Positions 30,717-62,043 of a stretch of DNA of 64,000 bases are shown in pieces; within the stretch, counting starts at the first letter, position 1, and the number at the start of each line of letters is the position of its first letter. Made by a program: the position numbers and the translations under genes. Origin of the DNA: Escherichia coli (GTDB lineage Bacteria; Pseudomonadota; Gammaproteobacteria; Enterobacterales; Enterobacteriaceae). Where the stretch lies: the NCBI RefSeq assembly GCF_001677475.2, contig NZ_CP015229.1. One strand, 5' to 3'. The notes under the pieces are model-generated. The model searched no databases and was not told the DNA's origin. It was given only the letters and a program-made list of their open reading frames with translations.

Positions 30717-31116
30717 AAGCGCATGCCGTTTAGTTACCGCTCTGATCATTCTTACTTGTCCGGTAATGGCGCTGACATCAGTATAAAGCGCCATTGCTGC
30801 TTCTTTGCCGATCCCAGGATGCCTTCCATTCTGATGTTTGACTTCGCCCACTGAGAAATCCTCTGTTTCCCCTTAACGCCGGGGTAGCGGAACAAAAACC
30901 TGCTGCATAGTTAAAGTTGAACCCTGCCGTCATGTTCTTACGCCTCGGGCTGGCTACTTAACCCCTGACCACTGCCTGGTAACTCGAAGTATTGCCCTGC
31001 GTTTTGTGGGGCGGGGTGGGTTAGTAAAAATAGTTTATACAAAAATAAACTAAACAGTCAATATGCAACTTAACTCTTTGGCGAGGATAACCCCTGTTGA
31101 GAGGGGCTTCGGGGGA

Positions 31117-44707: not shown

Positions 44708-45058
44708 ATGCCATCACGAATCCCACGCGCCTGCCGTAAGCGTGGATGTGCAGGTACAACCACAGACAGTTCTGGTTACTGCGATAAACATCGTGGCGAA
44801 GGATGGGTACAGCATCAACGCGGACTGAGCCGCCACCAGCGTGGCTATGGCTCGAAATGGGATGCCATACGTGCGCGCATACTGAAGCGTGATAATCATC
44901 TGTGTCAGAACTGCCTGCGCAATGGGAGAGCCGTTGAAGCCAGAACTGTGGACCACATCATTCCGAAAGCTCATGGTGGCACGGATGCAGACAGTAACCT
45001 GCAGAGTCTGTGCTGGCCCTGTCATAAAGCAAAAACAGCGCGCGAACGCATCAATTGA
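44708..45058 (+). CDS. HNH endonuclease (terminase-associated)
   Basis: 116 aa; HIIPKAHGG...CWPCH motif; directly upstream of terS. Confidence 0.75.
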   Translation: MPSRIPRACRKRGCAGTTTDSSGYCDKHRGEGWVQHQRGLSRHQRGYGSKWDAIRARILKRDNHLCQNCLRNGRAVEARTVDHIIPKAHGGTDADSNLQSLCWPCHKAKTARERIN

Positions 45059-45206
45059 TAACAGTTCCCATCTGTAGGGGAGGGGCGGGTCAAATCTCTG
45101 CAACCCTGGCTGCTCAGTACCGCCGCCTGACCCTTCTTCACATCGCCGCAGGTTCGAAAACTTTTTTTTGGAAATGTGAACAAACGATTGATAGGTAAGG
45201 CCGATT

Positions 45207-45689
45207 ATGTCAGGACCTCCGAAAACCCCGCCACGCCTGCATTTGATACGAGGCAACCCCTCAAAGCGCCCCGTTAAAGACCACAAAAAAACCGCTAAAA
45301 AGGATGAAAAAGGTCTTCCTAAAATTCCGCAGCATTTAGGGGCTCAGGGGAAGTACTGGTTCAGGCGAATGGCGGAAGAGCTGAATGCGGAAGGGATCAT
45401 TTCTCAGCTTGATGCGCGTGCACTCGAGTTGCTGGTGGAAGCCTACACCGAATATCGGCATCACTGCGAAACACTCGATGTTGAGGGGTATACCTACCGC
45501 ACGGAAACGCAGAGCGGTGATGTACTGATTAAGGCGCACCCCGCGGCGGCAATGAAAGCGGATGCCTGGAAGCGGATCCGGGCAATGCTTGCAGAGTTTG
45601 GTATGTCACCGGCAAGCCGGGCTAAAGTAAATATCGCCGGACCGGATGATGTTGATCCGCTGGCGGAGCTTTTAAAAGCGAGAGACTGA
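45207..45689 (+). CDS. Terminase small subunit (P27-family-like)
   Basis: 160 aa; homologous to the satellite TerS at 59601. Confidence 0.7.
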   Translation: MSGPPKTPPRLHLIRGNPSKRPVKDHKKTAKKDEKGLPKIPQHLGAQGKYWFRRMAEELNAEGIISQLDARALELLVEAYTEYRHHCETLDVEGYTYRTETQSGDVLIKAHPAAAMKADAWKRIRAMLAEFGMSPASRAKVNIAGPDDVDPLAELLKARD

Positions 45690-46716
45690 TGGCAAAAGTG
45701 GCTGACGGGATCCGCTACGCCGAACGTGTTGTTGCAGGAGAAATTGTTGCTGGCGAATTTGTCCGCCTGGCCTGCCAGCGTTTTCTTGATGATCTGAAGT
45801 ACGGCGAAGAGCGGGGGATTTATTTCAGTGAACCCCGTGCGCAGCACATCCTGAATTTCTACAAATTTGTGCCTCATGTAAAAGGGGCGCTGGCAGGCCA
45901 GCCCATTGAGTTGATGGACTGGCATGTATTTATTCTCATTAATATTTTTGGTTTTGTCATTCCGCTGGTCAATGAAGAGACCGGGGAAGTTGTCATGCGC
46001 AGCGATGGCAGTGGACGTCCGGTGATGGTGCGCCGGTTCCGGACGGCGTACAACGAAGTCGCTCGTAAAAACGCAAAATCAACTCTGTCATCGGGTATCG
46101 GCCTGTATATGACGGGGGCAGATGGTGAAGGCGGAGCTGAGGTGTATTCAGCCGCAACCACGCGTGACCAGGCCAGAATCGTGTTTGAAGACGCCAAAAA
46201 TATGGTCAGAAAAGCCCGGTCGACACTCGGGCGGTTGTTTGATTTCAACAAGCTGGCGATTTACCAGGAGCAGAGCGCATCAAAATTTGAACCGCTTTCT
46301 TCGGATGCAAACAACCTAGACGGTCTGAACATCCACTGCGCCATTATTGATGAGCTGCATGCACATAAAACCCGCGACGTGTGGGACGTTCTGGAAACGG
46401 CAACCGGTGCCCGTCTGCAGTCCCTGTTATTTGGTATCACCACGGCGGGCTTTAACAAGGAAGGGATTTGTTACGAGCAACGCGATTACGCCATCAAGGT
46501 ATTGCGAGGCTATAACAGCGACGTGGAGGGCGCGGTAAAAGACGACTCCTACTTTGCGATTATTTACACGCTCGATGAGGGAGATGATCCGTTTGATGAA
46601 ACGGTCTGGCAGAAAGCGAATCCGGGCCTGGGCATCTGTAAACGCTGGGATGATCTGCGTCGTCTGGCGAAAAAAGCGAAGGAGCAGGTCTCGGCGCGGG
46701 TGAATTTTTTCACGAA
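45689..46716 (+). pseudogene. Prophage terminase large subunit, N-terminal ~343 codons, interrupted by satellite insertion
   Basis: Aligns with satellite TerL N-terminus (PHVKGA..G.PIEL..W); frame runs into unrelated satellite DNA and stops at 46882. Confidence 0.8.
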
Positions 46717-46845
46717 GAAAGTAACATCACGCCGTAACAACAGTGCAGTCTGTCCTGATTTTTTTAGTAACCAAATGAAAGAAAAAGATTTTTTCTTGTT
46801 CGTCGTTTTTGTTTTTTCTGGATGGTTCTGGCTGTTTTCATCATT

Positions 46846-46867
46846 TGTGTATTGCACTGTGTATTGC
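46846..46867. repeat. Tandem GTGTATTGC repeats near satellite left end
   Basis: tgtgtattgcactgtgtattgc; near-identical copy at 62023-62043. Confidence 0.6.
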
Positions 46868-46887
46868 AAAAACGGGTTATAAATCAC

Positions 46888-48111
46888 ATGGCGCTAAACA
46901 AACTGAGCGATAAAAAACTTCGTTCCCTGCTTGGACGCAGGAGTGAGAGACAGGAAACCATCGCTGATGGTAACGGGCTTTCGGTACGGGTCAGTAAATA
47001 CGGATGTGTTAGTTTTGTTTTCTTTTACAGACTGGCGGGAAGGGGAACCGCGCCCATCTGGCTGACACTTGGAAAATATCCTGATCTGAGTCTCAAATCA
47101 GCGAGAGAGATGCGCGATCAGTGTCGAACCTGGCTTGCGGAGGGCAGAGATCCACGGATTCAGATAAAAATTGAACGGGAAGCCACCTTGCAACCTGTTA
47201 CCGTTCGTGAGGCACTTGAATACTGGCTTGATAATTATGCAATGGATAAGCGTAGGGGAGCAGAACATATCAGGCAGTGCTTTGGTAAACATATTTATCC
47301 GGTGATTGGTCATGTACCACTTAGTGATTGCTCTATATCTATGTGGATTAAGTGTTTTGACAAAATAAAAAAAGTAGCACCTGTACAGGCCGGAGCTTTG
47401 TTGCGTATATCAAAACAGGCGCTTAAATTTTGTAGGGTAAGAAAATACGCGATTAGTCATGAAATTGATGATCTTGAGGTCTGTGATGTGGGAAAAAAGT
47501 CTGCGCGAAGAAGCAGGGTTTTAACAGATGATGAAATCAGAGATTTATGGCGAAGTATTAATACTGATTATGACAATCACGAATTATCATATGAAAACCG
47601 AATTATTTTACGTTTCCTGGTAGTTTTTGGTTGCCGACTGTCAGAAGTATTACTGTCGTCCTGGGGAGAGTGGGATTTTGATAAGAAATTATGGCGCGTT
47701 CCCGCTGAACATAGCAAAAATGGCAGGGAAATAATCAGACCGATTCCTGATGGCATGTTTAACTGGTTAGTTACGTTAAAAAAAATAACAGGTAACAAAG
47801 AAAATGTGATTGGGTTTGATATGCGTCAGTGTACGGCAAGCGTAACTATCGGTAAGACATGGAAAAGGATGAAACACTCGGAGAAATGGACGGCGCATGA
47901 TATGCGAAGAGTGTTTGCCACAAAACTAAGTGATCATGGTTTTGAACATAATGTGGTTGAACAGTTGCTTGGGCACACATTAGGCGGTGTTGCCGGGGTT
48001 TATAACAGAAGCCAGTATATGGACAGAAAAAAAGAAGCTATGAACTGGTGGTACGACTATCTGAATAAGCAAATTAGTGGTGACGGTAATGATTCAAATA
48101 GTTACGCGTGA
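46888..48111 (+). CDS. int: P4-type tyrosine integrase
   Basis: 407 aa from MALNKLSDKKLRSLLGRR..GLSVRVSKYG (typical P4-family N-terminus); HDMRRVFAT...LGH...Y. Confidence 0.85.
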   Translation: MALNKLSDKKLRSLLGRRSERQETIADGNGLSVRVSKYGCVSFVFFYRLAGRGTAPIWLTLGKYPDLSLKSAREMRDQCRTWLAEGRDPRIQIKIEREATLQPVTVREALEYWLDNYAMDKRRGAEHIRQCFGKHIYPVIGHVPLSDCSISMWIKCFDKIKKVAPVQAGALLRISKQALKFCRVRKYAISHEIDDLEVCDVGKKSARRSRVLTDDEIRDLWRSINTDYDNHELSYENRIILRFLVVFGCRLSEVLLSSWGEWDFDKKLWRVPAEHSKNGREIIRPIPDGMFNWLVTLKKITGNKENVIGFDMRQCTASVTIGKTWKRMKHSEKWTAHDMRRVFATKLSDHGFEHNVVEQLLGHTLGGVAGVYNRSQYMDRKKEAMNWWYDYLNKQISGDGNDSNSYA

Positions 48112-48142
48112 AGAACTTGAAAATGATAAAACAATCGACAGG

Positions 48143-48310
48143 ATGATTAAGGAAGATGAATGTGCATGGTTAACCGCTCTTGGCAGGAGACACAGATCGT
48201 TACTTGAAAAGGAAGGAAAATTTCCACGAAAAATATGTATTGGTCCACAAACAAAAGTCTGGCGCTTATCTGAGGTGCTGGAATGGGTAAAAGGTGAATG
48301 GAAACCCTGA
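48143..48310 (+). CDS. AlpA-family DNA-binding protein, copy 1
   Basis: ORF 48077-48310; start at the internal Met (MIKEDECAWLTALG...); LSEVLEWV. Confidence 0.6.
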   Translation: MIKEDECAWLTALGRRHRSLLEKEGKFPRKICIGPQTKVWRLSEVLEWVKGEWKP

Positions 48311-48333
48311 GCTAAATTAAATGAGATATAATC

Positions 48334-48357
48334 AACCCGTCTTTTGGCGGGTTTTTT
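48334..48357 (+). terminator. Intrinsic terminator
   Basis: aacccgtcttttggcgggttttttt. Confidence 0.6.
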
Positions 48358-48373
48358 TATAGGTGATATTTTT

Positions 48374-48652
48374 ATGCAAAAATTTATTTATCCTACACCC
48401 GAAGAACGCATTCAGATTCTGAAAGATCATGGCGAACCGTATGATCGCCGTATACGCGAACATGAGTGTGCCAATCGTACCGGGCTTTCAAGAAGCAGAC
48501 GTTGGGTACTTGAACAGGAGGGAGCATTTCCTGCTCGTGCTCATTTAGGGAAAGTGTCTGTTTCCTGGTTGCTCTCTGATGTGCTCTGGTGGGTTATGCA
48601 TCCGCCAGGAGTAAAGGAAGTAAACAGCCCATACAAAAACGCCAATAAGTAA
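48374..48652 (+). CDS. AlpA-family DNA-binding protein, copy 2
   Basis: From MQKFIYPTPEER; ECANRTGLSRSRRWVLEQEGAFPA. Confidence 0.6.
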   Translation: MQKFIYPTPEERIQILKDHGEPYDRRIREHECANRTGLSRSRRWVLEQEGAFPARAHLGKVSVSWLLSDVLWWVMHPPGVKEVNSPYKNANK

Positions 48653-48660
48653 TTACCGAC

Positions 48661-48690
48661 AACCCCGCACCACGCAATGCGGGGTTTTTT
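48661..48690 (+). terminator. Intrinsic terminator
   Basis: aaccccgcaccacgcaatgcggggtttttt. Confidence 0.65.
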
Positions 48691-48706
48691 GTATGTGAGG
48701 TAGAAA

Positions 48707-49303
48707 GTGATGAATAAAAATATTGCCGTGACGGGCAAGGGTGACGCACGTCATGTGAAAAAATTCTGTGATATTCGTGATCTGGTCGTTCTGCGCTTTG
48801 ATAGTGTGAACGTTCGCGTGGTGTATCTGAACGGCGATCCGTGGTTTGTTGGCGCTGATGTGTGTGCGGCGCTGGAAATTAGCAACGTTACCGATGCTGT
48901 TTCAGTTCTGGATAACGATGAGGTAATGACCCTAGCTTTAACCGAGGGTCATTCAGGTAAGCGTGGTGGTGCCAGAAGTTGGAATGTTGTATCAGAATCA
49001 GGTTTTTACAAGTTGATCGCCAGAAGTCGCAAAGCTGTTAATCCTGGCACGTTCGCCCATCGTTTCAGTAATTGGGTATTCAGAAATGTGATACCGGGTA
49101 TCAGAAAAACGGGGGCTTATGGTATCCCGTGGGGCGCATTACAGGATTTTTCCCGCCGCAAAGAGCAATATCAGGTAAGTGCCAGCGAGAAGGGGAGGGA
49201 GCTACAGGCATGTAAGCGCAAAAAGCGTGAGCTAGAGGAAGAAGAAAAAAGGCTGATACGTGAATATCAGCCTGAGTTTTACTTTGGTGAGCGTATTCAG
49301 TAA
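48707..49303 (+). CDS. Bro-N domain protein (antirepressor-like)
   Basis: 198 aa; N-terminal ...VYLNGDPWFVGADVCAALEISNVTDAVSVLDNDE. Confidence 0.6.
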   Translation: MMNKNIAVTGKGDARHVKKFCDIRDLVVLRFDSVNVRVVYLNGDPWFVGADVCAALEISNVTDAVSVLDNDEVMTLALTEGHSGKRGGARSWNVVSESGFYKLIARSRKAVNPGTFAHRFSNWVFRNVIPGIRKTGAYGIPWGALQDFSRRKEQYQVSASEKGRELQACKRKKRELEEEEKRLIREYQPEFYFGERIQ

Positions 49304-49915
49304 CCACACGCGGTGCTGATTATACGGTACATCGTGTTAACCGAGAAGCTACCCACCAGCAAGGCAAAATCTTCTGCTAAAAAATGACATATGGCCAGTC
49401 GTCTGGAAAGCATGAAATTTTACAAAAATGGAAAATGAAGATTTTTATTGTGCTGGTGGGTAAAAACAAAAAGCGCCCCGTTGCCGGAGCGCCCTTGCGA
49501 ACAATTAACCTACTGCGCAAAAAAATGAATCTGTGCAGGGGGATTATATCAACCGTGTGACGAAGCGCCACAATTGCCGGATAACAGGCAAAGAAAAGGC
49601 CACCCGCTACGGTGGCCCTTCGACACAAGCTACACGTTATCCCCAACGCATGAGCGTCGCCAACAATGCCACATTTGCGGCTGGTGGGCAATGTGATCAG
49701 TGTGCTGGCTTGCTGGTGGGCTATTCCTGCTCTTTGGCCTTGCGTTGCTTTAGTGCTGCACGAGCTAATCAATCATTGTATATGAGGCGTGGAATCTTTT
49801 TTTCATCACTCCTGCATACACGCTCATTACTGACGTGTTCATTGCTGATGCAATTTCCCAGGAGGAAAGCAAATAAAAACAAAGAGCCAAGCCAGTATAG
49901 TACTTGCTGCATAAG

Positions 49916-50101
49916 TTATTCCTTATCTGATTCTTTGGTTTTTTTCCGTTGGCGGCGTTTGATCTCGCCACGCATGGCTGCGCTTATAAACTGCCCTGTA
50001 CTTTCGCCATCTTCTTTCACGTTTTCCATGCCTTCAATAATTTCATGGGCAATACGTGCAGTTACAGATTGTGATTTTGCATTCTTTGGACCTGTTGCCA
50101 T
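49916..50101 (-). CDS. Small putative ribbon-helix-helix regulator
   Basis: 61 aa from MATGPKNAKSQSVTARIAHEIIEG; GAGGGG RBS; divergent from rightward operon. Confidence 0.4.
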   Translation of the reverse strand: MATGPKNAKSQSVTARIAHEIIEGMENVKEDGESTGQFISAAMRGEIKRRQRKKTKESDKE

Positions 50102-50122
50102 GTCTAACCCCTCATGTTTTTG

Positions 50123-50204
50123 GTGTAAGACAATATACACGAAAAAAAACTATTTTAAAGGGTTGACGTGTAAGACACTGTTGTTTTATGTTGTGTCTTA
50201 CACC
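50123..50204. promoter_or_regulatory. Candidate operator array: three GTGTAAGACA(C) sites
   Basis: Sites at 50123-50132, 50168-50178 and inverted 50194-50204 (11-bp palindrome, 15-bp spacer) overlapping a TTGACG -35-like hexamer. Confidence 0.5.
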
Positions 50205-50300
50205 TTGAGTGTTCAAGGTTCAGAAACTGCGAAGCCCGTAGGTGCCGCTAACACCCACAGGCTTCTAACCACCAACGATAGTAATAGTATCGAGGCAGCT

Positions 50301-50504
50301 ATGAGAAATCATACCACACACCCGCAAGGGCGGGACTCGCACAACCTGAATAAATACATCTGGCGTTTTATCGCCCTGAGCACGGCACAACCGCGCGTAA
50401 TTCACATCGTGGCCACCAGCGAACAGGAAGCGCGTCAGCAATCTCCTGATGGCTGCGTGATGGTATTCGCCGCCCGTATTCGTCAGGGGTCACATCATGC
50501 GTAA
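50301..50504 (+). CDS. Small Icd-like/Ash-family-like protein, copy 1 (tentative)
   Basis: C-terminal WRF...ATSEQEARQQ...VFAARIRQG motif shared with the next ORF. Confidence 0.35.
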   Translation: MRNHTTHPQGRDSHNLNKYIWRFIALSTAQPRVIHIVATSEQEARQQSPDGCVMVFAARIRQGSHHA

Positions 50505-50790
50505 AAACCGCTTGCAAAAAATTATCACGGGACTGTATGCTTCCCGCGTCACCCACATGGTGACCGGGTTTGACAGCCTGAATACTACAGCGGACAGCCG
50601 CTTACATTCCGATATGCGGTTTTTTTGTGTCCGTAAACCTACCCATACCCGCATTATGGCGGGGCGTAACGGGGGAGCCTTTGCGCTCGCTGGTTCCTGT
50701 AGTGCCAGTCTGTCAACCCTGTTACGTCTCGCCACCATGTTTGACAGCGTAGTAGCGAGACTCCTTAATTTCACTACAGGAGCCTTTCAC

Positions 50791-50964
50791 ATGGCTGTAT
50801 CCACACGCCCTTATTTTGTCTGGCGCTTCATGCAGTGCCATGAAAAACAAACCTCACTCTTTACCGTCACGGCTGCCACTGAGCGCGAAGCACGCGCGCA
50901 GCTGCCGCACGCACATCTGATTTTTGTCGCCCGTATCCGTCAGGGGGTAAACCATGTTCAGTAA
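50791..50964 (+). CDS. Small Icd-like/Ash-family-like protein, copy 2 (tentative; may extend upstream to 50497)
   Basis: C-terminal VWRF...AATEREARAQ...IFVARIRQG. Confidence 0.35.
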   Translation: MAVSTRPYFVWRFMQCHEKQTSLFTVTAATEREARAQLPHAHLIFVARIRQGVNHVQ

Positions 50965-51175
50965 CAACACACCGGACGCAGCCGCAAAAGCGTTAACCAC
51001 GCTGATGCACGCGCTGATTGATATTGAATGCACGGCAGAGCTTGCGCAGAACAAAGGGAAGGAAGATTACACCGCGTTCTGCCTGGAATGTATCCGCTAT
51101 ATTTCTTCCCGCTCTCTGGATGAGGCTAAAAATATTCTTATTGCTGATTGTGAAAATGGGGGGGGTTATGCGTGA
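50954..51175 (+). CDS. Hypothetical protein
   Basis: 73-aa ORF. Confidence 0.3.
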   Translation: MFSNNTPDAAAKALTTLMHALIDIECTAELAQNKGKEDYTAFCLECIRYISSRSLDEAKNILIADCENGGGYA

Positions 51176-51391
51176 TGATCGTTTTAATTCCCTGAAACAG
51201 GAATTTTCCGGCGTGCCTGATGATGCGGCTGATGCGCTTTCGTCAATATCTGAAATAATGAGGGCGGCTTTTTTTCTTTCTTTGCACTGATGAGCACAGG
51301 GATACAGGGTTAAATATTCTTGATATCGCCGCTAACTATGCTGACTTCGTAACGGAAGCAGCGTCAAGAAAAACAACGGGTGGGGATTAAT

Positions 51392-51625
51392 ATGCGTGAT
51401 ATTTACATTGAAACAATAGACCGCGTATTTCTTGCACTTTCTCACAGTGAAAACATGCTGGAAATATTACGCATATGGCTTGAAACGCTTGGAGATAATG
51501 AACGTGATAAACAGAAATCCAGAATTGCCACGGCATTAATAACGCTTCTTGAGCCTGTAATAAATGAGTTACAGGAAATAGAGACATTACACGACAGATA
51601 TAAAGAACAGCACACCGGAGAATAA
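51392..51625 (+). CDS. Hypothetical protein
   Basis: ORF 51380-51625, start at MRDIYIETID. Confidence 0.35.
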   Translation: MRDIYIETIDRVFLALSHSENMLEILRIWLETLGDNERDKQKSRIATALITLLEPVINELQEIETLHDRYKEQHTGE

Positions 51626-51630
51626 AAATA

Positions 51631-51930
51631 ATGAAACTTAAATATTCTGGCTTAACTGCCAGCGGCCCCGCTCGGCCTGAAATCCGTAACGGCGATATTT
51701 ACCGCGACCAGTACGGTGGCACGGTAATGATTAAGGGCGTGGCGGGACGGTGCGTTACCTACCGCCGTGAAGGTTACGAATATGACTGCGTGATGCCTGT
51801 TTATCAGTTCCGGCGTGATTTTTCTCTGGTACAGGCAGCGCAACGCGGTAAGCCCACCAGCAACGCCAGGGCACGTGCAAACATCCAGAAACTGAAAACC
51901 ATGATTAACGGATTCAGGGGTAAAAAATGA
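51631..51930 (+). CDS. Hypothetical protein
   Basis: 99-aa ORF upstream of the rep gene. Confidence 0.35.
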   Translation: MKLKYSGLTASGPARPEIRNGDIYRDQYGGTVMIKGVAGRCVTYRREGYEYDCVMPVYQFRRDFSLVQAAQRGKPTSNARARANIQKLKTMINGFRGKK

Positions 51931-53336
51931 AACTGGCACCGAACGTAAAACTATTACCGAAAGATAAGCACACAGAAGCGATTATTTTCGCGGGTGTTGA
52001 TGCTCACTCATTTGCAGAGCACTACATCATTGCACAGGCCAAAAAGGCGGGAGACCCGACGCCTCCCGTTTACCTGGGCCGTTATCAGTTAAGCGAACTG
52101 GATAACTTGCAGATTGTTGATGAGGGGCGGTACAGGGCGACAGTGATACGCGCCGGAAATATTGACGAAGCGCAGCTGCTAACCATCGCGACGAAACTGG
52201 CGATCGCCGGAGTCCAGGAAGCGCGGCTGCTTTCTGAAAATTTCGAATTGCTGGAGAAATGGACCGACCAGCTACCACGGTTGCGGGAGACATGGGAGAG
52301 AGGGGAAAGCCTGGTAATGGCAAAAAACCCCCAACGAAACACCACGCTACCGATGAGCGTTGGATCTGCCGGATACGACACGCAGCTGGATTACGTGGTT
52401 AAGGGCATTATTCCGGCGTCGTCGCTGTGCAGCATATACGGGGCGAGCGGTTCCTATAAATCATTCCTTGCGGGTTCGTGGGCGTGTCACGTTTCCACGG
52501 GCCGCCAGTGGGGAGGCCGCAGGGTTGCGCATGGTGCCGTTCTCTATGTGGTTGGTGAAGGCGGTATTGGTGTACCACGTCGTGTAAAAGCCTGGGAGGT
52601 TGTGCACGATGTACAGGTGAAAAATCTGTACCTGGTAAACCGCCCCGTCTTTCCGGCGGTCCCGCTTGATGTTGATGAAATGGTTATCGCTGCCCGTCAG
52701 GTGGAGCGGGAAACGGGTAAACCTGTACGCATGATTATTCTGGATACGCTGGCGCGTTGCTTTGGCGGCAATGATGAAAATGATTCCCGTGATATGGGGG
52801 CGTTTATCCGTGGGTGTGACGAACTGAAACGACGCACAGGGGCTACGGTGCTGGTGGTTCACCATTCCGGCAAGGATGAGACGAAAGGCGCGCGAGGTTC
52901 CAGTGCATTCCGTGCGTCACTGGATGCCGAATACCGGATACGCAGAGAGGACGCAGGAAGCGAGGCGCTGGTAATCTCATGTACCAAAATGAAGGACGCG
53001 GAGGAACTTAAAGAAGCCGCCTACGATTTGCGGGTGGTGGAGCTATTTACCGACGCTGACGGCGAATTAATTACGTCGCTGGTGGTGGTGGATAAGCCGC
53101 GTCCTCCCGTTGAACTGGAGCGCATCGAGGAGGCAGGCAACAAGACGGAAAACCATACCGCGTTATGGGGGTGCATCCGGTCGCGCACACAGAACGGTGA
53201 TAAGTGCACTATTGCGCTGTTACGTGACGATATGAAAAAGCTGGGGTATGAGATGAAGCACTTCAGCCGCTGGTTACGCAAGCTGGAAAAAGACGGGGTT
53301 ATTTATATCGACGGTGATGACGTAGGCACGCTGTAA
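51927..53336 (+). CDS. Replication protein: RepA-like RecA-fold helicase/ATPase with C-terminal DNA-binding region
   Basis: 469 aa; Walker A GASGSYKS, Walker B MIILD, HHSGKDETKGARGSSA; iterons immediately downstream. Confidence 0.7.
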   Translation: MKLAPNVKLLPKDKHTEAIIFAGVDAHSFAEHYIIAQAKKAGDPTPPVYLGRYQLSELDNLQIVDEGRYRATVIRAGNIDEAQLLTIATKLAIAGVQEARLLSENFELLEKWTDQLPRLRETWERGESLVMAKNPQRNTTLPMSVGSAGYDTQLDYVVKGIIPASSLCSIYGASGSYKSFLAGSWACHVSTGRQWGGRRVAHGAVLYVVGEGGIGVPRRVKAWEVVHDVQVKNLYLVNRPVFPAVPLDVDEMVIAARQVERETGKPVRMIILDTLARCFGGNDENDSRDMGAFIRGCDELKRRTGATVLVVHHSGKDETKGARGSSAFRASLDAEYRIRREDAGSEALVISCTKMKDAEELKEAAYDLRVVELFTDADGELITSLVVVDKPRPPVELERIEEAGNKTENHTALWGCIRSRTQNGDKCTIALLRDDMKKLGYEMKHFSRWLRKLEKDGVIYIDGDDVGTL

Positions 53337-53530
53337 AAAGTGGGGTGCAAAAGTGGGGAGAGTGAGCAAAACGCCCGAAAAACGCCATTATTCCCCACTT
53401 TTCAACGTATATATACCCAAAAAAGTGGGGAGTAAAAAAATCTTTATGAAACAGCACGATAAAAATCAAAAACTCCCCACCTGTAACGAGGTGGGGAAGT
53501 GTAAAAAGTGGGGCGCAAAAGTGGGGAGTG
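53336..53530. repeat. Iteron array, candidate satellite replication origin
   Basis: Eight or more copies of AAAGTGGGG / CCCCACTTT in both orientations within ~195 bp. Confidence 0.7.
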
Positions 53531-53786
53531 ATGGGGAAATGACCAGAATACGCAGAGACAGAACAGAGCCGAAATATAAAGCGTTAGACATGACAGAGCT
53601 TTCCTTAACGGTGGCAATCAAAGCGATAGACCGCCACACGCGGGAAGGATACGCGAAGGAACATCCCGAACTGATAAGCGCATTCATGGCCGCAGCGGCT
53701 GCAAACTTTGCCACGCTGACAGAACGGGAGACAGCCGAGGCAGAACAGGTAACAACCATCAACGTTAAAACCGGAGGGGTGGAATC

Positions 53787-54212
53787 ATGACGGCACAGAT
53801 AGCAGCTTACGGGCGGCTGGTGGAGGACCCGCAGGTAAAACAGACCAGCAAGGGAACACCCATGACGCTGGCGAGTATGGCGGTTCCCCTGCCATGCAGC
53901 CAGGCAGATGACGGAACGGCGACGATGTGGTTATCCGTCCTGGCGTTTGGCAGACAGGCCGACGCACTGGCAAAACACCGCAAAGGCGAACTGGTGAGCG
54001 TGGCGGGTAACATGCAGGTAAGCCAGTGGACAGGGCAGAACGGCGAAACGCGGCAGGGCTGGCAGGTTATTGCAGACAGCGTAATCAGTGCGCGAACGGC
54101 GCGACCGGGCGGCAAAAAAGGCCAACAGGGGCAGGCCACTGACGCACTGAACAGGGCAAAACAACAGACAGGCCAGCACGATGATCCGTACGGGGACGGG
54201 ATACCGTTTTAA
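53787..54212 (+). CDS. ssb: Single-stranded DNA-binding protein
   Basis: 141 aa; OB-fold-like N-terminus, Gly/Gln-rich linker, acidic tail ending DDPYGDGIPF. Confidence 0.7.
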   Translation: MTAQIAAYGRLVEDPQVKQTSKGTPMTLASMAVPLPCSQADDGTATMWLSVLAFGRQADALAKHRKGELVSVAGNMQVSQWTGQNGETRQGWQVIADSVISARTARPGGKKGQQGQATDALNRAKQQTGQHDDPYGDGIPF

Positions 54213-54227
54213 GCAGTGAGGTACAGC

Positions 54228-54509
54228 ATGATTAAAGACAGCAAAGCGGAAGAACTGGAGGCTAAAGGGCTGTACCGGAGAGCGGCGGCACGTTGGGCTG
54301 ATGTTATGTGGCTGGTGAGCACTGACAAGGAGCGCGAACAAGTGGCAAAGCGTCGCGCGGAATGTATCCGTAAGGCAGCACGCCCACCAGTCATACCGGA
54401 TAATTTCGGAATACTGAAAGAGGCCATAAACCGCACACATACCGGGATGGGCTTACAGAAGCCTGGCGGTGAGATGTTCAGGAACTACCCGAAAAAAGGG
54501 GATAATTGA
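54228..54509 (+). CDS. Hypothetical small basic protein (possibly PerC-like regulator; tentative)
   Basis: ORF 54216-54509; KGLYRRAAARWADVMW motif. Confidence 0.3.
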   Translation: MIKDSKAEELEAKGLYRRAAARWADVMWLVSTDKEREQVAKRRAECIRKAARPPVIPDNFGILKEAINRTHTGMGLQKPGGEMFRNYPKKGDN

Positions 54510-54554
54510 TAACGGTTGTTAACTGTTTCTGGTATCGTGGTAGCAGGAGGAAAC

Positions 54555-54803
54555 ATGCCAGTGACATTTGAAGAAGTCCAGCAACATAAAAAGCTTCATG
54601 GTTTTGATGATCTGGAAACCACGACAGCAAAAAAATATCGCCGGCTGCTTTCTTCCGATGCGTTATTTTTTGTGGATCATCATGATTTTCTGCGTAGCTC
54701 ACTGACCGGGGAAATTTTCGCAACCAACCGTGAGCAGGTGGAAGCGATGATCGAATATCTGTGGAAAATAAGGCGCAGAATGCGTGATCCCGTGAAACGG
54801 TAG
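54555..54803 (+). CDS. Hypothetical protein
   Basis: ORF 54516-54803, start at MPVTFEEVQQ. Confidence 0.35.
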   Translation: MPVTFEEVQQHKKLHGFDDLETTTAKKYRRLLSSDALFFVDHHDFLRSSLTGEIFATNREQVEAMIEYLWKIRRRMRDPVKR

Positions 54804-54811
54804 AATAATAA

Positions 54812-54842
54812 TGGCCTGGTATTTTCCAGGCCATTTTTTTTT
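54812..54842 (+). terminator. Intrinsic terminator
   Basis: ggcctggtattttccaggcc followed by T-run. Confidence 0.7.
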
Positions 54843-55314
54843 AGAAGTCGATCTCTGTATCGCGATTAAATTCATCGCTAAGGTAAAGTGCTTCGCTTGG
54901 GCATTTTCCGTTTTCCAGTAATGTTTCCCAGAAATCTTTATCGAAACACCCCTCAAGATACAGATAGCGGCAGATGTGAAGTAAATCACTTCGTGTCCAT
55001 CCGTGCATGCTGCTACTTGTTACACCATATTCACTTTCTAGTTTATAGAATGTGAGCGCCTCCCGGTCGTGCCAGGCTTTGCACAGACGATCGTATATCT
55101 TTTTAGCTTTGTTTTTAGATGTGCCGAAAAACTCTTCGTAAATTTCATGTGGGCGAGTAGGAATACTTCCGTCGCCATCCTGCAAGAAAGGATAAACATC
55201 TGCCTCCCAGGCATACACGTAAGAATCGCTGAACTCATCATAGTGTTTACCAAGGTGGAGAATCTGCAATCGTTGCTGAATGAACATTGCTTTTTTCAGT
55301 TCATTTTCTGACAT
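54841..55314 (-). CDS. Hypothetical 157-aa protein on the opposite strand (candidate accessory/cargo gene)
   Basis: Only minus-strand gene within the replication-packaging span; no family recognised. Confidence 0.5.
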   Translation of the reverse strand: MSENELKKAMFIQQRLQILHLGKHYDEFSDSYVYAWEADVYPFLQDGDGSIPTRPHEIYEEFFGTSKNKAKKIYDRLCKAWHDREALTFYKLESEYGVTSSSMHGWTRSDLLHICRYLYLEGCFDKDFWETLLENGKCPSEALYLSDEFNRDTEIDF

Positions 55315-55608
55315 AGTTCGTTCCTCCTGATTAACGAGCAGAAAATGTACGGAACAGCTTATTTATTTTTTCAGGTTTTGTAAGTTATTTGTTCGTGGTT
55401 GTTCCAGGTTGTTCGGTGATTCTGGCTGATGTTTACATACTGATTTTTATGTATATGTTGGCGTGTGGCACTCAGACGTGAGCCGCCACAATGCCGCCTG
55501 ACCCCCTGCGCGATGCCGGGTTGATCTGCGAGATGCCGAGAGTGTCGGGCGGCGCTCCCTCCGTGTTGGTTTCACGTCCTGAATCTTAACCAATACGAGA
55601 AAACCTTC

Positions 55609-56754
55609 ATGAAGAAATTAATCGAACTCCGCCAGCAAAAAACCGCCCTGAAAAACCAGATGCGATCCCTGCTGGAAAAAGCCGACAGTGAAAACCGCAG
55701 CCTGAACGATGACGAAGGCAAACAGTTTGATGAACTGCGTGCAAAAGCCGATTCCCTCGACACAGAAATCTCCCGTCTTGAAGCTGTTGCGGATGAAGAA
55801 CGTAACCAGCCAGGTGTTTGCGTCGAAGAGAAAATTACCAAAGACGAACTGCGCTCTTACATTCTGACCGGGGAAACCCGCAACCTGTCCGGCAGTGTTC
55901 CGGCTGATGGTGGTTATACGGTTATCCCGGAACTGAACAGAGAAATTATGCGTCAGCTTTCTGATGAATCGGTGATGCGTAAAATCTGTACTGTTAAAAC
56001 CATTCACAGCAATGAATTTAAGCAACTGGTTTCTGCCGGGGGCGCGGTCGTTGAACACGGTGAAGAAGGCACTACACGTAACCAGACGGCAACCCCAAAA
56101 CTGAATGAAGTCAGTATCCGCCTGTATCCGATCTACGCTTACCCGAAAACCACTCAGGAAATTATCGATTTTTCCGAAGTCGATATTATGGGCTGGTTAT
56201 CTTCTGAAATTGGCGACACTTTCGTTGATACCGAAGAAACGGATCTGGTTTCTGGTGATGGCGAGAAAAAAGCTAAAGGTTTCCTGGCTTTTCCGCGCAC
56301 TGAGGATAACGACAAAACCCGTCCTTTCGGTACGCTCCAGACGAAAAAAGTTACTGGCAGTCTTAGCGCCGACATGCTGATTGACCTGAAATTTACGCTG
56401 CGCAATAAGTACCGCAAAAAAGCTGTATGGGTGATGAACTCAAATACAGCCGCCTCCGCACAAAAACTGAAAAATGCCACTGGTGATTACATCTGGCGCG
56501 ATCGTTTACAGGCTGGTGATCCTGATTCTCTGCTGGGGCTTCCGGTTGAATATCTGGAATTTATGCCGGACGGTGTGATTGCAGTAGGTGACTTTAAGCG
56601 CGGTTATTTCATCGTTGACCATGAAACCGGTACGCGTACCCGTCCGGATTTCAGCGAACCTGGATTCATTAACATCTATACCCAGAAATATCTGGGCGGT
56701 GGTGTGGTGGATTCGAACGCCATCAAGATTCTGGAAATTCAGGCTGGCAAGTAA
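55609..56754 (+). CDS. Major capsid protein (HK97 fold)
   Basis: 381 aa; N-terminal coiled-coil delta region; hairpin after stop. Confidence 0.8.
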   Translation: MKKLIELRQQKTALKNQMRSLLEKADSENRSLNDDEGKQFDELRAKADSLDTEISRLEAVADEERNQPGVCVEEKITKDELRSYILTGETRNLSGSVPADGGYTVIPELNREIMRQLSDESVMRKICTVKTIHSNEFKQLVSAGGAVVEHGEEGTTRNQTATPKLNEVSIRLYPIYAYPKTTQEIIDFSEVDIMGWLSSEIGDTFVDTEETDLVSGDGEKKAKGFLAFPRTEDNDKTRPFGTLQTKKVTGSLSADMLIDLKFTLRNKYRKKAVWVMNSNTAASAQKLKNATGDYIWRDRLQAGDPDSLLGLPVEYLEFMPDGVIAVGDFKRGYFIVDHETGTRTRPDFSEPGFINIYTQKYLGGGVVDSNAIKILEIQAGK

Positions 56755-56803
56755 TGAGCAAAGGGGGCTTCGGCCTCCTTTTTCAGCTTTATGGAGTACA
56801 CCG

Positions 56804-57364
56804 ATGAAAAACACCGATTTTGAAATCCGTACATCTGAACTGACCGCCAGCGATAAAAAACTGGTGGGTTATGCCGTTCGCTGGAACAGCCTTTCAGAAA
56901 TTATTTGGGACGAATTCCGCGAACAGTTCACGCCGGGGGCTTTTGCTGACTATCTGGCGGCGGGTAATGATGTGCGCTGCCTGTATGAGCATGACTATAC
57001 CCGACTGCTGGGGCGCACCAAATCCGGAACACTGGTACTGACTGAGGACAACACCGGGCTACGTTTTGAACTGACACCGCCTGATACCCAGCTTGGAAAA
57101 GATGTGCTTACGCTGGTGGAGCGTGGCGACATTACAGGAATGAGCTTTGGCTTTCGCGCATTATGCGAAGAGTGGAATATCGCGCAAAAACCGTATCTGC
57201 GCACTGTTACCGCCGCAGAACTCCGTGAAATCACGATAACGTCGATGCCTGCTTATCCCGAATCTGGCGTGGAGATTGCCCACCGTTCGTTGTTTGCACA
57301 GCACCCTGAATTACGCCCGGCAGGAAATAATCGTCATCGCTGGGCTGAACTGGCGGGGTTGTGA
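56804..57364 (+). CDS. Prohead maturation protease (HK97 family)
   Basis: 186 aa from MKNTDFEIRTSELTASDKKLVGYAVRWNS. Confidence 0.75.
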   Translation: MKNTDFEIRTSELTASDKKLVGYAVRWNSLSEIIWDEFREQFTPGAFADYLAAGNDVRCLYEHDYTRLLGRTKSGTLVLTEDNTGLRFELTPPDTQLGKDVLTLVERGDITGMSFGFRALCEEWNIAQKPYLRTVTAAELREITITSMPAYPESGVEIAHRSLFAQHPELRPAGNNRHRWAELAGL

Positions 57365-57365
57365 T

Positions 57366-58580
57366 ATGTGGTGGCCTTTTAGTCGTAAAAAAAGCGATCT
57401 GCGTAACCTGTCCATTGATGATTTTCTGGCGCTGTCCGGCGTACCGAATACCGGATCCGGAGAATATGTTTCTGCCGGGACGGCTGAATCATTGCCTGCT
57501 GTGATGAACGCGGTTTCTGTCATCGCTGAGGCGGTGGCCACGATGCCGTGTTATCTGTATCTGGTACGCAATGATAAGGGCAGGGAGGCGCGGGAGTGGC
57601 TGGACAGTCATCCGGTCGATATTCTGCTGAATGAGCAGCCTAATTCGTGCCAGACACCTTACCAGTTTAAACGCACAATGATGCGTCACTGCCTGCTGAA
57701 CGGTAACGCCTATGCGGTTATTGAGTGGGGGCGGGACGGTCAGCCAAAATCACTTCATCCTTATGCGCCGGGGTGTGTTGTACCGGAACGCACTGGCGCG
57801 CACAAATACCGCTATACCATCACCGAACCCTATACAGGAACGGTGCGCACGTATTTACAGGAAGAAGTCCTGCATCTCCGCTATGCCTCGGATGATGGCT
57901 TTCTGGGACGTTCCCCCGTCACGATTTGCCGTGAGGCGCTGGGGCTTGGCCTTGCTCAACAGCGTCACGGAGCCAGCATTATGAAAGATGGCATGATGGC
58001 GGCAGGGATTATCACGTCAGGCGAATGGCTGGACGGTGTGAAAGGTAAACAGGCATTAGACGCCCTGGAACGCTACAAGGGGGCGAAAAATGCCGGAAAA
58101 ACGCCAATCCTTGAAGGGGGCATGGATTACAAGCAACTGGGGATGAGTAACCAGGATGCGGAATGGCTGGCCTCCCGTCGCTTCTCCATTGAAGACATCG
58201 CCCGGATGTTCAACGTGTCGCCGATTTTTCTTCAGGAATACAGCAACAGCACCTACAGCAATTTCAGTGAGGCAAGCCGCGCGTTTCTGACCATGACAAT
58301 GCGCCCATGGCTGGCGAACTTCGAACAGCAAATTAAGGCCGCTTTGCTGGTGGCTTCTCCCGTACCTGGTACCCGTTATCTGGTTGAGTTTGATTCAGCC
58401 GATTTACTGCGCGCTACTCCAACCGAGCGTTACGCCACGTATGAGAAAGGGATTAAGAACGGGATCATGAATCCGAACGAAGCCCGCGAACGTGAGGGGA
58501 TGCCGCCGCGTGAAGGTGGCGACGAATTCAGCCAGGCATGGAAGCAGACGGTGGAAATTAAAGGTGAAAAAGATGAGTGA
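57366..58580 (+). CDS. Portal protein (HK97 family)
   Basis: 404 aa from MWWPFSRKK; homologous to the prophage portal at 63049. Confidence 0.8.
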   Translation: MWWPFSRKKSDLRNLSIDDFLALSGVPNTGSGEYVSAGTAESLPAVMNAVSVIAEAVATMPCYLYLVRNDKGREAREWLDSHPVDILLNEQPNSCQTPYQFKRTMMRHCLLNGNAYAVIEWGRDGQPKSLHPYAPGCVVPERTGAHKYRYTITEPYTGTVRTYLQEEVLHLRYASDDGFLGRSPVTICREALGLGLAQQRHGASIMKDGMMAAGIITSGEWLDGVKGKQALDALERYKGAKNAGKTPILEGGMDYKQLGMSNQDAEWLASRRFSIEDIARMFNVSPIFLQEYSNSTYSNFSEASRAFLTMTMRPWLANFEQQIKAALLVASPVPGTRYLVEFDSADLLRATPTERYATYEKGIKNGIMNPNEAREREGMPPREGGDEFSQAWKQTVEIKGEKDE

Positions 58581-58872
58581 AGAAAAAATTACACCTGATG
58601 AAGTCAGGGCACATCTTCGCCTTGATGACTTTTCCGGAGAGGGCGAACTTCTGAAAATGTATACCGATGCGGCGCTGGAAGCCTGCCAGAAGCATATCGG
58701 GAAACGTTTTGAAGACGGCCTGGAATTTACCCCGGCAATACGTGTTGGTTGCCTGATGTACATTGCTTTCCTGTACGAGAACAGGGAAGCGGTTTCACCT
58801 GTGGAGCAGTCTGAACTGCCTATGGCTATTTCTGCGCTCTGGTCGGTTTATCGTGATGTGGGGGTGTACTGA
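58573..58872 (+). CDS. Head-tail connector/adaptor (gp6-like)
   Basis: 99 aa from MSEEKITPDEVRAHLRLDDFSGEGELL. Confidence 0.6.
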   Translation: MSEEKITPDEVRAHLRLDDFSGEGELLKMYTDAALEACQKHIGKRFEDGLEFTPAIRVGCLMYIAFLYENREAVSPVEQSELPMAISALWSVYRDVGVY

Positions 58873-59312
58873 TGCCGTGGCAACCATTAAGGCGATGCAC
58901 TGAGCCGGGCTGTAATAAGCGCGTGAAGTCCGGCAAGTGTGAAGAGCACAGGCGGGCTGCATGGCGTGCAGAGGATGCCAGACGGGGACACCGCCGCGCG
59001 CGCGGGTATTCCCGACAGTGGGACAAATACCGCGCCCTGTACCTGAGCAAAAACCCGTTATGCGTGCGTTGTCTGGCTAAGGGGATTTATACGCCAGCTC
59101 TTGTGGTGGATCACATCATTCCCATCAATGGCGGCGGTGATGTTCTCTTCTGGCCTGAGTGGAACCACCAGGCATTGTGCCAGACGTGCCACAACCGTAA
59201 GACGACACGGGAAGACCCAGCCACGAAAGCGAACCGTAAGGCGGGCATGTATCGCGAGCAGGAAGAACGGGCGGCACACCGTAACGACTGGATGTATGGC
59301 GATGATGACTGA
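58872..59312 (+). CDS. HNH endonuclease (terminase-associated)
   Basis: 146 aa; CVRCL...VDHIIPINGGG...CQTCHNRKT. Confidence 0.75.
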   Translation: MPWQPLRRCTEPGCNKRVKSGKCEEHRRAAWRAEDARRGHRRARGYSRQWDKYRALYLSKNPLCVRCLAKGIYTPALVVDHIIPINGGGDVLFWPEWNHQALCQTCHNRKTTREDPATKANRKAGMYREQEERAAHRNDWMYGDDD

Positions 59313-59481
59313 ACATGAGCAAAACAGGCTGATACGTGGACTGATAAGGCAACGTGACTTATGGAAGACACAGGAGACAGGGCACAAAGCCAACAGGACA
59401 GGGCGCACAGAACGCACCACAGCGAAGCGATTAACCGACCGTGACCGCGAGGTCATGGAATGTTTTCGCAATCGCTGGTGA
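59302..59481 (+). CDS. Hypothetical small basic protein
   Basis: ~59 aa Arg-rich ORF between HNH and terS. Confidence 0.3.
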   Translation: MMTEHEQNRLIRGLIRQRDLWKTQETGHKANRTGRTERTTAKRLTDRDREVMECFRNRW

Positions 59482-59600
59482 GGCTGTCAGAGGGGGTGGG
59501 GGAGGTTTTCAGGACGAAACCGTCCCTGCCGGACACCGACCGCCTCCTCAAATTTTTGTGCACGGTAATTTTTTTGAAAATAATTGGGCGAAAAAAGAAC

Positions 59601-59957
59601 ATGGCAAGACCACCAAAAGCCCCCGCTTACCTGGATGAAATCGCGGTCAGGCAGTGGAAGGAAAAATCGCGCCAGCTTTCCGTGCGGGAAGACCTTACCC
59701 CCGCCGACTGGAGCAATCTGGAACTGTATTGTGTTAACTACTCCATATACCGCAAAGCCGTCGAAGACCTTGCGACGCGCGGGTTCAGCATTGTTAACAG
59801 TCAGGGCAGCGAGAGCAGAAACCCCGCCCTGAGCGCAAAGGCTGACGCGGAAAGAATAATGATCAAAATGGCTTCTTTGCTGGGTTTTGACCCGGTAAGC
59901 CGCCGCAGAAATCCACCGGAAACAGAGGAAGAGGACGAGCTTGACCGCCTGGCATGA
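59601..59957 (+). CDS. Terminase small subunit (P27-family-like)
   Basis: From MARPPKAPAYLDEIAV; same M-x-x-PPK-xP start as prophage TerS. Confidence 0.7.
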   Translation: MARPPKAPAYLDEIAVRQWKEKSRQLSVREDLTPADWSNLELYCVNYSIYRKAVEDLATRGFSIVNSQGSESRNPALSAKADAERIMIKMASLLGFDPVSRRRNPPETEEEDELDRLA

Positions 59958-61602: not shown

Positions 61603-61681
61603 CGGAATGGATGAGAGAGGACAATGCTCATTTAATGGAATAAATTTTCAGTATTACCGGCACCCACTTTCAGGGATGTTT

Positions 61682-61837
61682 TTGCGGGTTATTTGAGGGG
61701 TGTTTGCGGGTTATTTTGAATGTCTTGCGGGTTACATTCTGGCTGATATTTAAATACGTTGTTTTTTTAACGTATTGATATTAAAGAGTAAAAGATAATT
61801 AGCACGCGAAGATAACCCGCTAACCCGCATAACCCGC
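61682..61837. repeat. Symmetric repeat array near satellite right end
   Basis: Three direct TTGCGGGTTA and three inverted TAACCCGC copies flanking an AT-rich palindrome (aatacgtt...aacgtatt). Confidence 0.6.
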
Positions 61838-62022: not shown

Positions 62023-62043
62023 GTGTATTGCGCTGTGTATTGC
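62023..62043. repeat. Tandem GTGTATTGC repeats near satellite right end
   Basis: gtgtattgcgctgtgtattgc, matching 46846-46867. Confidence 0.6.

Follow-up and report, generated by a model that had tools for sequence, protein, structure and literature searches.

A 64,000-nucleotide (nt) stretch of an Escherichia coli genome (contig NZ_CP015229.1 of assembly GCF_001677475.2; hereafter the window) carries two DNA packaging modules, one of a prophage and one of a capsid-forming satellite embedded in that prophage. In both of them a G-rich tract stands between a gene for an HNH endonuclease and terS, the gene for the small terminase subunit. Each of these HNH–terS spacers is probably a four-part cohesive-end (cos) site of the HK97/P27 type, in which the G-tract is an upstream subsite locked at a fixed distance from the cut and is not the part that discriminates between the two elements. 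The four parts would be a G-tract of ~15 bp (GGGGnGGGGnnGGT followed by C or T), a spacer fixed at 29 bp with AC as its usual ending, 10 bp that form the 3′ cohesive end after cutting, and, at the left end, the expected binding region of TerS, which has a GC-rich box and a T-tract. Assisted by the HNH protein, the terminase would nick the two strands at either edge of the 10-mer, the top strand directly behind it and the bottom strand directly ahead of it, at AC^C (the caret marks the cut).

The sequence-only reading of this DNA had pointed to a G-tract between the HNH gene and terS in both the prophage and the satellite. Both tracts do lie inside the HNH–terS spacers, and they recur there far above chance. 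The interval 45059–45206 is exactly the prophage spacer, which runs from the HNH stop codon (45058) to the terS start (45207), and Pfam searches find an HNH domain, a Terminase_4 TerS (P27 family) and a large terminase subunit (TerL) of the PF03354/PF20441 family in both packaging modules (Table 1). The prophage stretch named earlier, tgtaggggaggggcgggtc, stands precisely at 45073–45091; the satellite one, cagagggggtgggggaggtt, is present too, at 59488–59507, one base away from the ~59489–59508 that had been given for it. When up to one mismatch is allowed, the G-tract pattern GGGGNGGGGNNGGTY has four matches in the window against 0.43 expected, a number that none of 100 shuffled sequences reaches. 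A composite motif made up of the G-tract, 27 arbitrary nucleotides and ACC occurs in exact form at the two HNH–terS spacers only, with 0.14 matches expected in the window. A third exact match to the G-tract pattern (GGGGCGGGGTGGGTT, 31008–31022, plus strand) lies in an intergenic part of the prophage early region and is followed by AT-rich sequence. It has no ACC at +29 and no HNH gene or terS nearby, is treated here as unrelated, and may have arisen by chance.

The cut positions in the window were derived by applying the geometry of relatives with known ends. The record of phiP27, an Stx2e phage, annotates a 10-nt "cos-site", CGCCCGCCCC, in the homologous spacer, 29 nt downstream of its G-tract. 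The SfI record ends in ...GGGGAGGGGCGGGTC-29 nt-GGAC^TGCCCGCCCC, and the 10-nt cohesive end of this phage has been mapped on virion DNA (PMC3636060). The HK97 record, which ends in ...GGGGGGGGGATC-29 nt-GAC^CGCCGCCAAA and continues at its left end with GTTTGAATTT, belongs to a phage whose ends are 10-nt 3′ overhangs (PMC9410871). In mycobacteriophage Murphy (Cluster E) the record end reads ...GGGGGTGGGGGTGGTT-29 nt-GAC^CGCTTGTCA, and the Cluster E overhang is a 9-nt 3′ extension, CGCTTGTCA (PMC11465865). In Xp10 the G-tract stands 39 nt from the terminus, which carries a 9-nt 3′ overhang, GGACAGTCT (PMC2248197). A script check of HK97, SfI, Murphy and Xp10 places the bottom-strand nick 29–30 nt and the terminus 38–39 nt downstream of the G-tract in all of them.

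The two window sites can be read against these records. The 15-mer GGGGAGGGGCGGGTC is identical in the prophage, SfI, SfV and phiP27, and the predicted prophage overhang aligns column for column with CGCCCGCCCC of phiP27, TGCCCGCCCC of SfI and CGCCGCCAAA of HK97. The similarity of the prophage spacer to phiP27 stops at window position 45127, inside the overhang, and the satellite spacer aligns with phiP27 over ACCG.CCGCC..CTCAAATTTTT. The prophage is thus predicted to be cut at TAC^CGCCGCCTGA, with the overhang at 45121–45130, and the satellite at CAC^CGACCGCCTC, with the overhang at 59537–59546. At the predicted bottom-strand nick both window sites have the junction AC^CG, as do HK97, phiP27 and Murphy. 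The site nicked by cos-adjacent HNH enzymes of Gram-positive phages (N.phiGamma type) is CG^GT, or AC^CG when the opposite strand is read (PMC3592412), so that the junction is the same in both groups, although for the HNH proteins of the window this specificity is a prediction. Among other records, those of mEp235, Fraca and HK106 are linearised at terS and not at cos and say nothing about the ends, that of SfV is linearised 7 nt before the overhang, and the partial genome of Pseudomonas phage CF127a shows no recognisable motif at its end and is uninformative.

The G-tracts had been proposed to be the cos sites themselves. Homology to phiP27, SfI and HK97 does argue for a cos site in each HNH–terS spacer, but it separates the G-tract from the cut. 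It is highly improbable that the tract is the cleavage site, even though no other motif between the HNH gene and terS is as conspicuous and this phage group typically has G/C-rich cohesive ends. The termini of HK97, SfI, Cluster E and Xp10 lie 38–39 nt downstream of it (PMC3636060, PMC11465865, PMC2248197), the annotated cos of phiP27 is a C-rich 10-mer and not the G-tract, and the virion-derived record of vB_KppS-Ant holds an intact G-tract. The latter record (16,548 bp, sequenced from an induced lysate) breaks off just past the G-tract block (...GGTTTTCAGGAC) and resumes 22 nt ahead of terS. Next to its close relative L054, it misses ~69 nt that bracket the predicted overhang but keeps the G-tract, a gap that would weakly suggest a library of linear molecules with ends there.

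Conservation was assessed on loci retrieved by TerS similarity and hence unselected for the motif. All of them carry the G-tract, with hardly any change within its block. Among 59 unique sequences of the satellite family (TerS 84–100% identical), the conserved blocks are GGGGTGGGGG.GGTTTTCAGGAC, the ACC at the predicted nick, CCTCAAATTTTT and T7-GAAAATAA, while variation is free in the ~16 nt that precede the G-tract and in ~17 nt in the middle of the spacer. From the G-tract to ACC, a 25-sequence alignment is free of insertions and deletions except in one member (L079), which has lost 1 nt within the G-run. Of the 44 unique spacers in the satellite family, 43 have the same spacing, as have 42 of the 43 unique ones in the prophage family. 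When all of IMG/VR was scanned with the composite motif, at least 120 stretches matched, with 102 unique ones among the matches listed. Within the same listed matches, 62 of the 88 open reading frames (ORFs) directly downstream encode a Terminase_4 TerS and 38 of the 94 upstream ones an HNH protein; the latter is an undercount, because phage-inducible chromosomal islands of the capsid-forming kind (cf-PICIs) have a small ORF in between. The layout is also shared by records picked solely for an HNH gene beside the terminus, namely those of Xp10, Stenotrophomonas phage BUCT603B1 and a Providencia phage. BUCT603B1 reads GGGTAGGGGGTGGGTC-29 nt-GGAC^CCCCC, with the spacing of exactly 29 nt, and the Providencia record breaks before the nick position. 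A megablast search of the satellite packaging region against phage records gave no match, and relatives were found only in a more distant search mode.

These data bear on the simplest objection, that the G-tracts are compositional noise or neutral remnants that do nothing. The exact 15-mer match at 31008–31022, in AT-rich intergenic DNA outside any cos, shows that the pattern can occur elsewhere. Yet the excess of the G-tract and of the composite motif over expectation, the near-invariance of the tract within variable flanks, the spacing held fixed across phyla and the predominance of TerS among the downstream ORFs in IMG/VR make this explanation barely credible. Judged by sequence comparison, the G-tract is a conserved part of a class of HNH-assisted cos sites. 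Two further features of the 29-nt spacer were noted. A second (A)ACC stands in the middle of it, at spacer positions 12–14 (window 45103–45105 and 59519–59521), 16 nt upstream of the nick's own ACC. Both window sites, HK97 and SfI have it, among ~12 of 22 compared lineages; it is not universal. In several lineages a small conserved dyad within the spacer seemed plausible to the eye; the best stem scores 3.59 against 3.28 in shuffles over the 22 lineages (p = 0.06), and no dyad is claimed.

The G-tract might instead be the recognition site of TerS and, through it, the determinant of self-packaging. Mapped TerS binding comes from outside the P27 family, and the two G-tracts of the window differ at 4 of 15 positions. 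The mapped case places TerS on the opposite side of the cut: HK97 TerS binds at +15 to +29 downstream of the cut, A/T tract included (PMC11331095), and its cryo-electron microscopy contacts (T16, G21 and T24–29; PMC11331095) fit the numbering of the HK97 record. In the window, a conserved GC-rich box and a T7 or T8 tract occupy +14 to +29 in the satellite and +12 to +39 in the prophage, and a TerS contact is predicted there. The G-tract is nearly the same in the two elements although their TerS proteins are 27% identical, and the satellite tract is almost that of a mycobacteriophage. It is the downstream region, not the G-tract, that stays invariant with a given TerS. In addition, two loci, L108 and L152, join an HK97-type left half (the G-tract and part of the spacer) to an overhang, downstream region and TerS of the prophage type. 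With these observations, TerS recognition of the G-tract is unlikely.

Two structural explanations were also weighed. In the first, the G-tract and the C-rich overhang region form a hairpin in RNA or single-stranded DNA that acts as a terminator, attenuator or translational element. The minimum-free-energy fold of the satellite site does pair GAGGGGGUGG with CCGCCUCCUC, and SfI, phiP27 and HK97 also have a G-rich and a C-rich arm. Any G-rich arm, however, pairs with any C-rich arm in some register, and folding is no better than in shuffled sequences (prophage z = +0.51; satellite z = −1.46, with 18 of 200 shuffles folding as well). Covariation is absent, with 79.6% of alignment cells paired against a shuffled mean of 79.5% (reached by 225 of 500 shuffles), and many sequences do not maintain the inner helix. 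The hairpin was rejected on the non-significant folding scores and the absent covariation, and we regard it as very unlikely. Nothing terminator-like was found at either spacer in a search for intrinsic terminators, nor a sigma-70 promoter at the motif. The second explanation is a G-quadruplex in the tract, which would stall replication or packaging at cos. One strand does carry several successive G-runs, but each site has about three runs of at least three G (GGGG A GGGG C GGG and GGGGG T GGGGG A GG), where four are normally needed. The conserved non-G positions (T followed by C or T, then CAAATC or TTTCAGGAC) and the exact distance to the nick point to recognition of duplex DNA, so a quadruplex is most improbable.

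In the four-part cos site favoured here, the G-tract would most likely position or activate the nuclease core, that is, TerL of the PF03354/PF20441 family together with the HNH protein. The nuclease core is the preferred candidate for the reader of the tract because this TerL family is common to all G-tract phages examined, while TerS and HNH are more varied. The combination of fixed spacing and free spacer sequence is the signature of a two-part protein–DNA contact. It is plausible that the work is divided between the strands, with HNH nicking the bottom strand and TerL the top one, a division that the HK97 authors raise as well (PMC11331095).

The same anatomy allows another role for the tract. 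Phage lambda has an upstream termination subsite of cos, cosQ (cited in PMC10359639, ref. 33). This subsite is short, lies a few helical turns upstream of the nicks on the side packaged last, apart from the side bound by TerS, and is required for the terminal cut but not for initiation. The G-tract has an analogous position, upstream of the nicks and opposite the TerS side, and might be a signal of this kind, which the motor would meet during translocation shortly before the terminal cut. The motor would reach it ~40–55 bp before the cut and ~55–85 bp before the TerS roadblock, and HK97 stalls at cos more efficiently when translocation is slow (PMC9410871; PMC11331095). Unlike the window elements, lambda has 5′ overhangs, a terminase of another family and no HNH protein, and cosQ has no established sequence similarity to the G-tract.

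The reading of each spacer as a four-part cos site with a distance-locked G-tract has to be weighed against several points that count against it. The nick positions in both window elements derive from alignment and the geometry rule. Murphy and SfI were found through similarity of the G-tract itself, so that the sample is biased towards the motif. The gap in the vB_KppS-Ant record might stem from faulty assembly of a stretch rich in G/C and homopolymers. Some sites lack the AC^CG junction (SfI has AC^TG, a satellite subgroup at 85% has AC^CA and Xp10 has CC^GG), and gp74, the HNH protein of HK97, has been described as non-specific in vitro (PMC3592412). The HK97 fragments that were used either exclude the G-tract (−20 to +80) or contain it undissected (−312 to +472) (PMC11331095; PMC9410871), and no experiment on the G-tract was found in the literature searched. 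Finally, HK97 gp1, the sole TerS with mapped binding, has no Pfam match to the P27 family (Terminase_4), and a TerS of the P27 type could touch the G-tract.

More tentatively, the subsite could be general. A G-tract 29–30 bp upstream of the bottom-strand nick may be a universal, uncharacterised cos subsite of HNH-assisted PF03354/PF20441 terminases in enterobacterial phages, cf-PICIs, Xanthomonas phages and mycobacteriophages, which is read by TerL with or without HNH, or sensed by the motor, and which sets the staggered cut. We would put this generalisation at somewhat short of even odds. If true, it would provide the missing "ruler" in the question of how HK97 places its 10-nt 3′ overhang.

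The sequence-only reading had further suggested that the two G-tracts are distinct cos sites that let each element package only itself. The sites do differ, and self-specificity is plausible, but the G-tract is a poor candidate for the discriminator: with 11 of 15 positions identical between prophage and satellite it is the least element-specific part of the site. The overhangs are identical at 4 of 10 positions, and ends would therefore not anneal across the elements; the region from +1 to +60 is identical at 18 of 60 positions, and the HNH proteins are 41% identical. That the tract is shared between the elements, and almost the same in a mycobacteriophage, makes it an unlikely basis for discrimination. 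Prophage and satellite DNA would rather be told apart by the divergent TerS proteins, the divergent downstream sites and the incompatible overhangs, and it is plausible that each element packages itself specifically on the strength of its overhang, its TerS-side region and its TerS. In the cf-PICI prototype, packaging of phage and of satellite is mutually exclusive (bioRxiv 10.1101/2022.09.08.507074), and in another cf-PICI, cohesive ends were inferred from a concatemer band (bioRxiv 10.1101/2025.02.11.637232).

The mosaics L108 and L152 imply that the left half of cos is exchangeable. They were also considered as a test of whether the type of G-tract goes with the type of HNH, but in both the upstream neighbour is an ORF on the reverse strand and not an HNH gene. 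Together with the point at ~45127 where similarity of the prophage to phiP27 ends, their joints fall inside cos, which seems to act as a module boundary.

Table 1. Coordinates of the packaging features and of the embedded satellite in the window
Feature	Position	Strand	Remarks
Prophage HNH endonuclease gene	44708–45058	+	116 residues with an N-terminal Cys-rich segment; Pfam HNH 1.9e-16
Prophage G-tract GGGGAGGGGCGGGTC, proposed upstream cos subsite	45077–45091	+	Exact pattern match; conserved in 43 unique spacers retrieved by TerS
Prophage 29-nt spacer of fixed length, AC at its end	45092–45120	+	Same length in HK97, SfI and Murphy
Prophage predicted 10-nt 3′ cohesive end CGCCGCCTGA	45121–45130	+	Predicted by homology; nicks at 45120/45121 (bottom) and 45130/45131 (top)
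Prophage candidate TerS-binding region (ATCGCCGC...GAAAAC-T8), left-end side of the cut	45142–45169	+	Near-invariant among loci retrieved with the prophage TerS; position analogous to HK97 +15 to +29
Prophage terS (P27 family)	45207–45689	+	Pfam Terminase_4 2.3e-25
Prophage terL, 5′ part, broken at ~codon 341	45689–46709	+	ORF continues to 46882 inside the satellite; Pfam TerL_ATPase and TerL_nuclease positions 2–64 only; blastn alignment to intact ON470580 broken at 46716
Embedded capsid-forming satellite, 15,409 bp	46710–62118	+	Bounded by TCACGAA cores at 46710–46716 and 62119–62125; comparison with intact vB_EcoM-606R7
Satellite integrase	46822–48111		Pfam Phage_integrase and Arm-DNA-bind_3
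Satellite capsid	55609–56754		Pfam
Satellite portal	57276–58580		Pfam
Satellite HNH endonuclease gene	58872–59312	+	Pfam HNH 8.8e-10
Satellite small ORF, 61 residues	59296–59481	+	RefSeq relatives annotate it as hypothetical; overlaps the HNH gene end and has its stop 11 nt ahead of the G-tract; found throughout the cf-PICI family
Satellite G-tract GGGGTGGGGGAGGTT	59493–59507	+	Exact pattern match; one conserved block with the following TTTTCAGGAC (to 59515); (near-)invariant columns in 25–59 diverse family members, variable on both sides
Satellite 29-nt spacer, AC at its end	59508–59536	+	First 8 nt conserved, middle ~17 nt variable; constant distance
Satellite predicted 10-nt 3′ cohesive end CGACCGCCTC	59537–59546	+	Predicted by the geometry rule and phiP27 alignment; nicks at 59536/59537 (bottom) and 59546/59547 (top)
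Satellite left-end elements CTCAAATTTTT, GCACGG and T7-GAAAATAA; candidate TerS-binding region	59547–59583	+	Invariant blocks; T7 at +23 to +29
Satellite terS (P27 family)	59601–59957	+	Pfam Terminase_4 2e-23
Satellite terL, intact	59941–61602	+	Pfam TerL_ATPase and full-length TerL_nuclease
Prophage terL, 3′ part	62119–62855	+	Pfam TerL_nuclease positions 64–283 (62130–62855)

Among the systems that have been described, HK97 (gp74 HNH, gp1 TerS and gp2 TerL) is the archetype of HNH-assisted cos cleavage and shares with the window sites the HNH protein, the G-tract, the 29-nt spacing, the AC at the cut, a C-rich 10-nt 3′ overhang, a left end with a T-tract followed by terS, and the PF03354/PF20441 family of TerL. 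Its T-run begins at +24 (the TerS site covers +24 to +29), next to +23 to +29 for the T7 of the satellite; the prophage T-tract lies further on, at +32 to +39. HK97 differs in the sequence of the overhang, in its HNH protein, which lacks an N-terminal zinc ribbon (PMC3592412), and in the distance of the HNH gene, which ends ~320 nt upstream of cos, whereas here 18 nt (prophage) and ~180 nt (satellite) separate the HNH gene from the G-tract. The closest relative of the prophage site is the cos of the SfV/SfI/phiP27/ST64B type, with its 10-nt end xGCCCGCCCC. This type has the same GGGGAGGGGCGGGTC, 29-nt spacing, HNH family and P27-family TerS; in phiP27 the overhang is CGCCCGCCCC instead of CGCCGCCTGA, and the left-end or TerS side is another module.

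HNH-assisted cos sites, self-packaging by cf-PICIs and helper-embedded satellites are already known. No description of a G-rich or G-tract cos subsite was found in the literature searched, although most subscription-journal literature was outside reach and may hold one, and no cos sequence or coordinates for cf-PICIs were found there either, the two cf-PICI preprints included. With the rule "G-tract, 29 nt, AC^C, 10-nt overhang", genome ends can be predicted to the base in cf-PICIs and in a class of prophages that is very common in E. coli. The comparison of the two sites splits cos into a shared part, the G-tract, and parts specific to each element (overhang and TerS side), so that the avoidance between helper and satellite can be tested by swaps. 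For the HK97 field, a conserved element outside the mapped TerS site is a candidate for placing the cuts of TerL and HNH, a placement that recent structural papers leave open.

The satellite sits within the prophage terL gene, a context that the sequence-only reading did not have, and this links the two cos sites in time. Joining 45689–46709 to 62119–62855 restores a TerL of 585 residues that is 99.5% identical to that of vB_EcoM-606R7. Since the prophage terL is interrupted, its own terminase could use the prophage cos only after the satellite has been excised (following the logic of PMC10111431). The junction of terL with the integrase gene is found in 35 of 5,426 complete E. coli genomes and in at least six IMG/VR contigs. 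On its size, which falls in the 10–18 kb class, and its gene order (integrase ... capsid, portal, hnh-terS-terL), the satellite classifies as a cf-PICI. Its placement is that of a PICI embedded in its helper (HE-PICI): it lies inside a late gene of the prophage and is co-oriented with it, the identity block is short, and excision would restore the gene.

Compared to the cf-PICI prototype EcCIEDL933, the genes for integrase, capsid, protease, portal and connectors and the hnh-terS-terL set follow the published order (10.1101/2022.09.08.507074), here within 15.4 kb; the window copy differs in having another integrase and in sitting in a prophage gene, not at the listed chromosomal attB sites. 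As for HE-PICIs (Tommasini, Mageeney and Williams 2023, PMC10111431), excision restores the gene, and A:Terminase_1:245/246 is among the listed targets. The prototype of that class, 11capE, is without terS and presumably relies on the helper cos, whereas in the window HNH-terS-terL and cos are the satellite's own. Of 5,426 E. coli genomes, 514 (~9%) carry the cf-PICI packaging region. A nearly identical packaging module lies in an island of E. coli TUM9757, where the full cf-PICI gene list is annotated, and the same module, with another integrase, is found at cspD/clpS in the chromosome. Elements of the cf-PICI class have neither tail nor lysis genes and are mobilised with tails from a helper phage. 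The annotation of the TUM9757 island accordingly lists no gene of either kind; in the window the scan covered part of the ORFs within 48112–55608. The small ORF between the satellite HNH gene and its G-tract has no Pfam match (scanned within a longer ORF of the same frame, 59101–59481).

Some database records of related elements are worth describing in their own right. vB_KppS-Ant (LR881103.1, deposited as an "Escherichia phage") has the gene content of a cf-PICI, with integrase, primase, capsid, protease, portal, connectors, HNH, terS and terL. Directly after terL it has an ORF of 766 residues annotated as "tail length tape measure protein", which is unexpected in an element of a class reported to have no tail genes. 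The record of Klebsiella phage P12620-1 (PQ569648.1, 106,503 bp) contains an HNH gene whose product is 78% identical to that of the satellite, ~150 nt from the record end, and stops ~25 nt short of the expected G-tract. Its length of about 7 × 15.2 kb may reflect a cf-PICI concatemer or a mis-assembly. In a set of Ralstonia phage records named YO... (ON170182, ON170214 and others; 21–23 kb), the first or last 348 nt encode an HNH protein ~49% identical to the satellite one; breaking at or beside the HNH gene, these records may represent satellites or cos-terminated assemblies.

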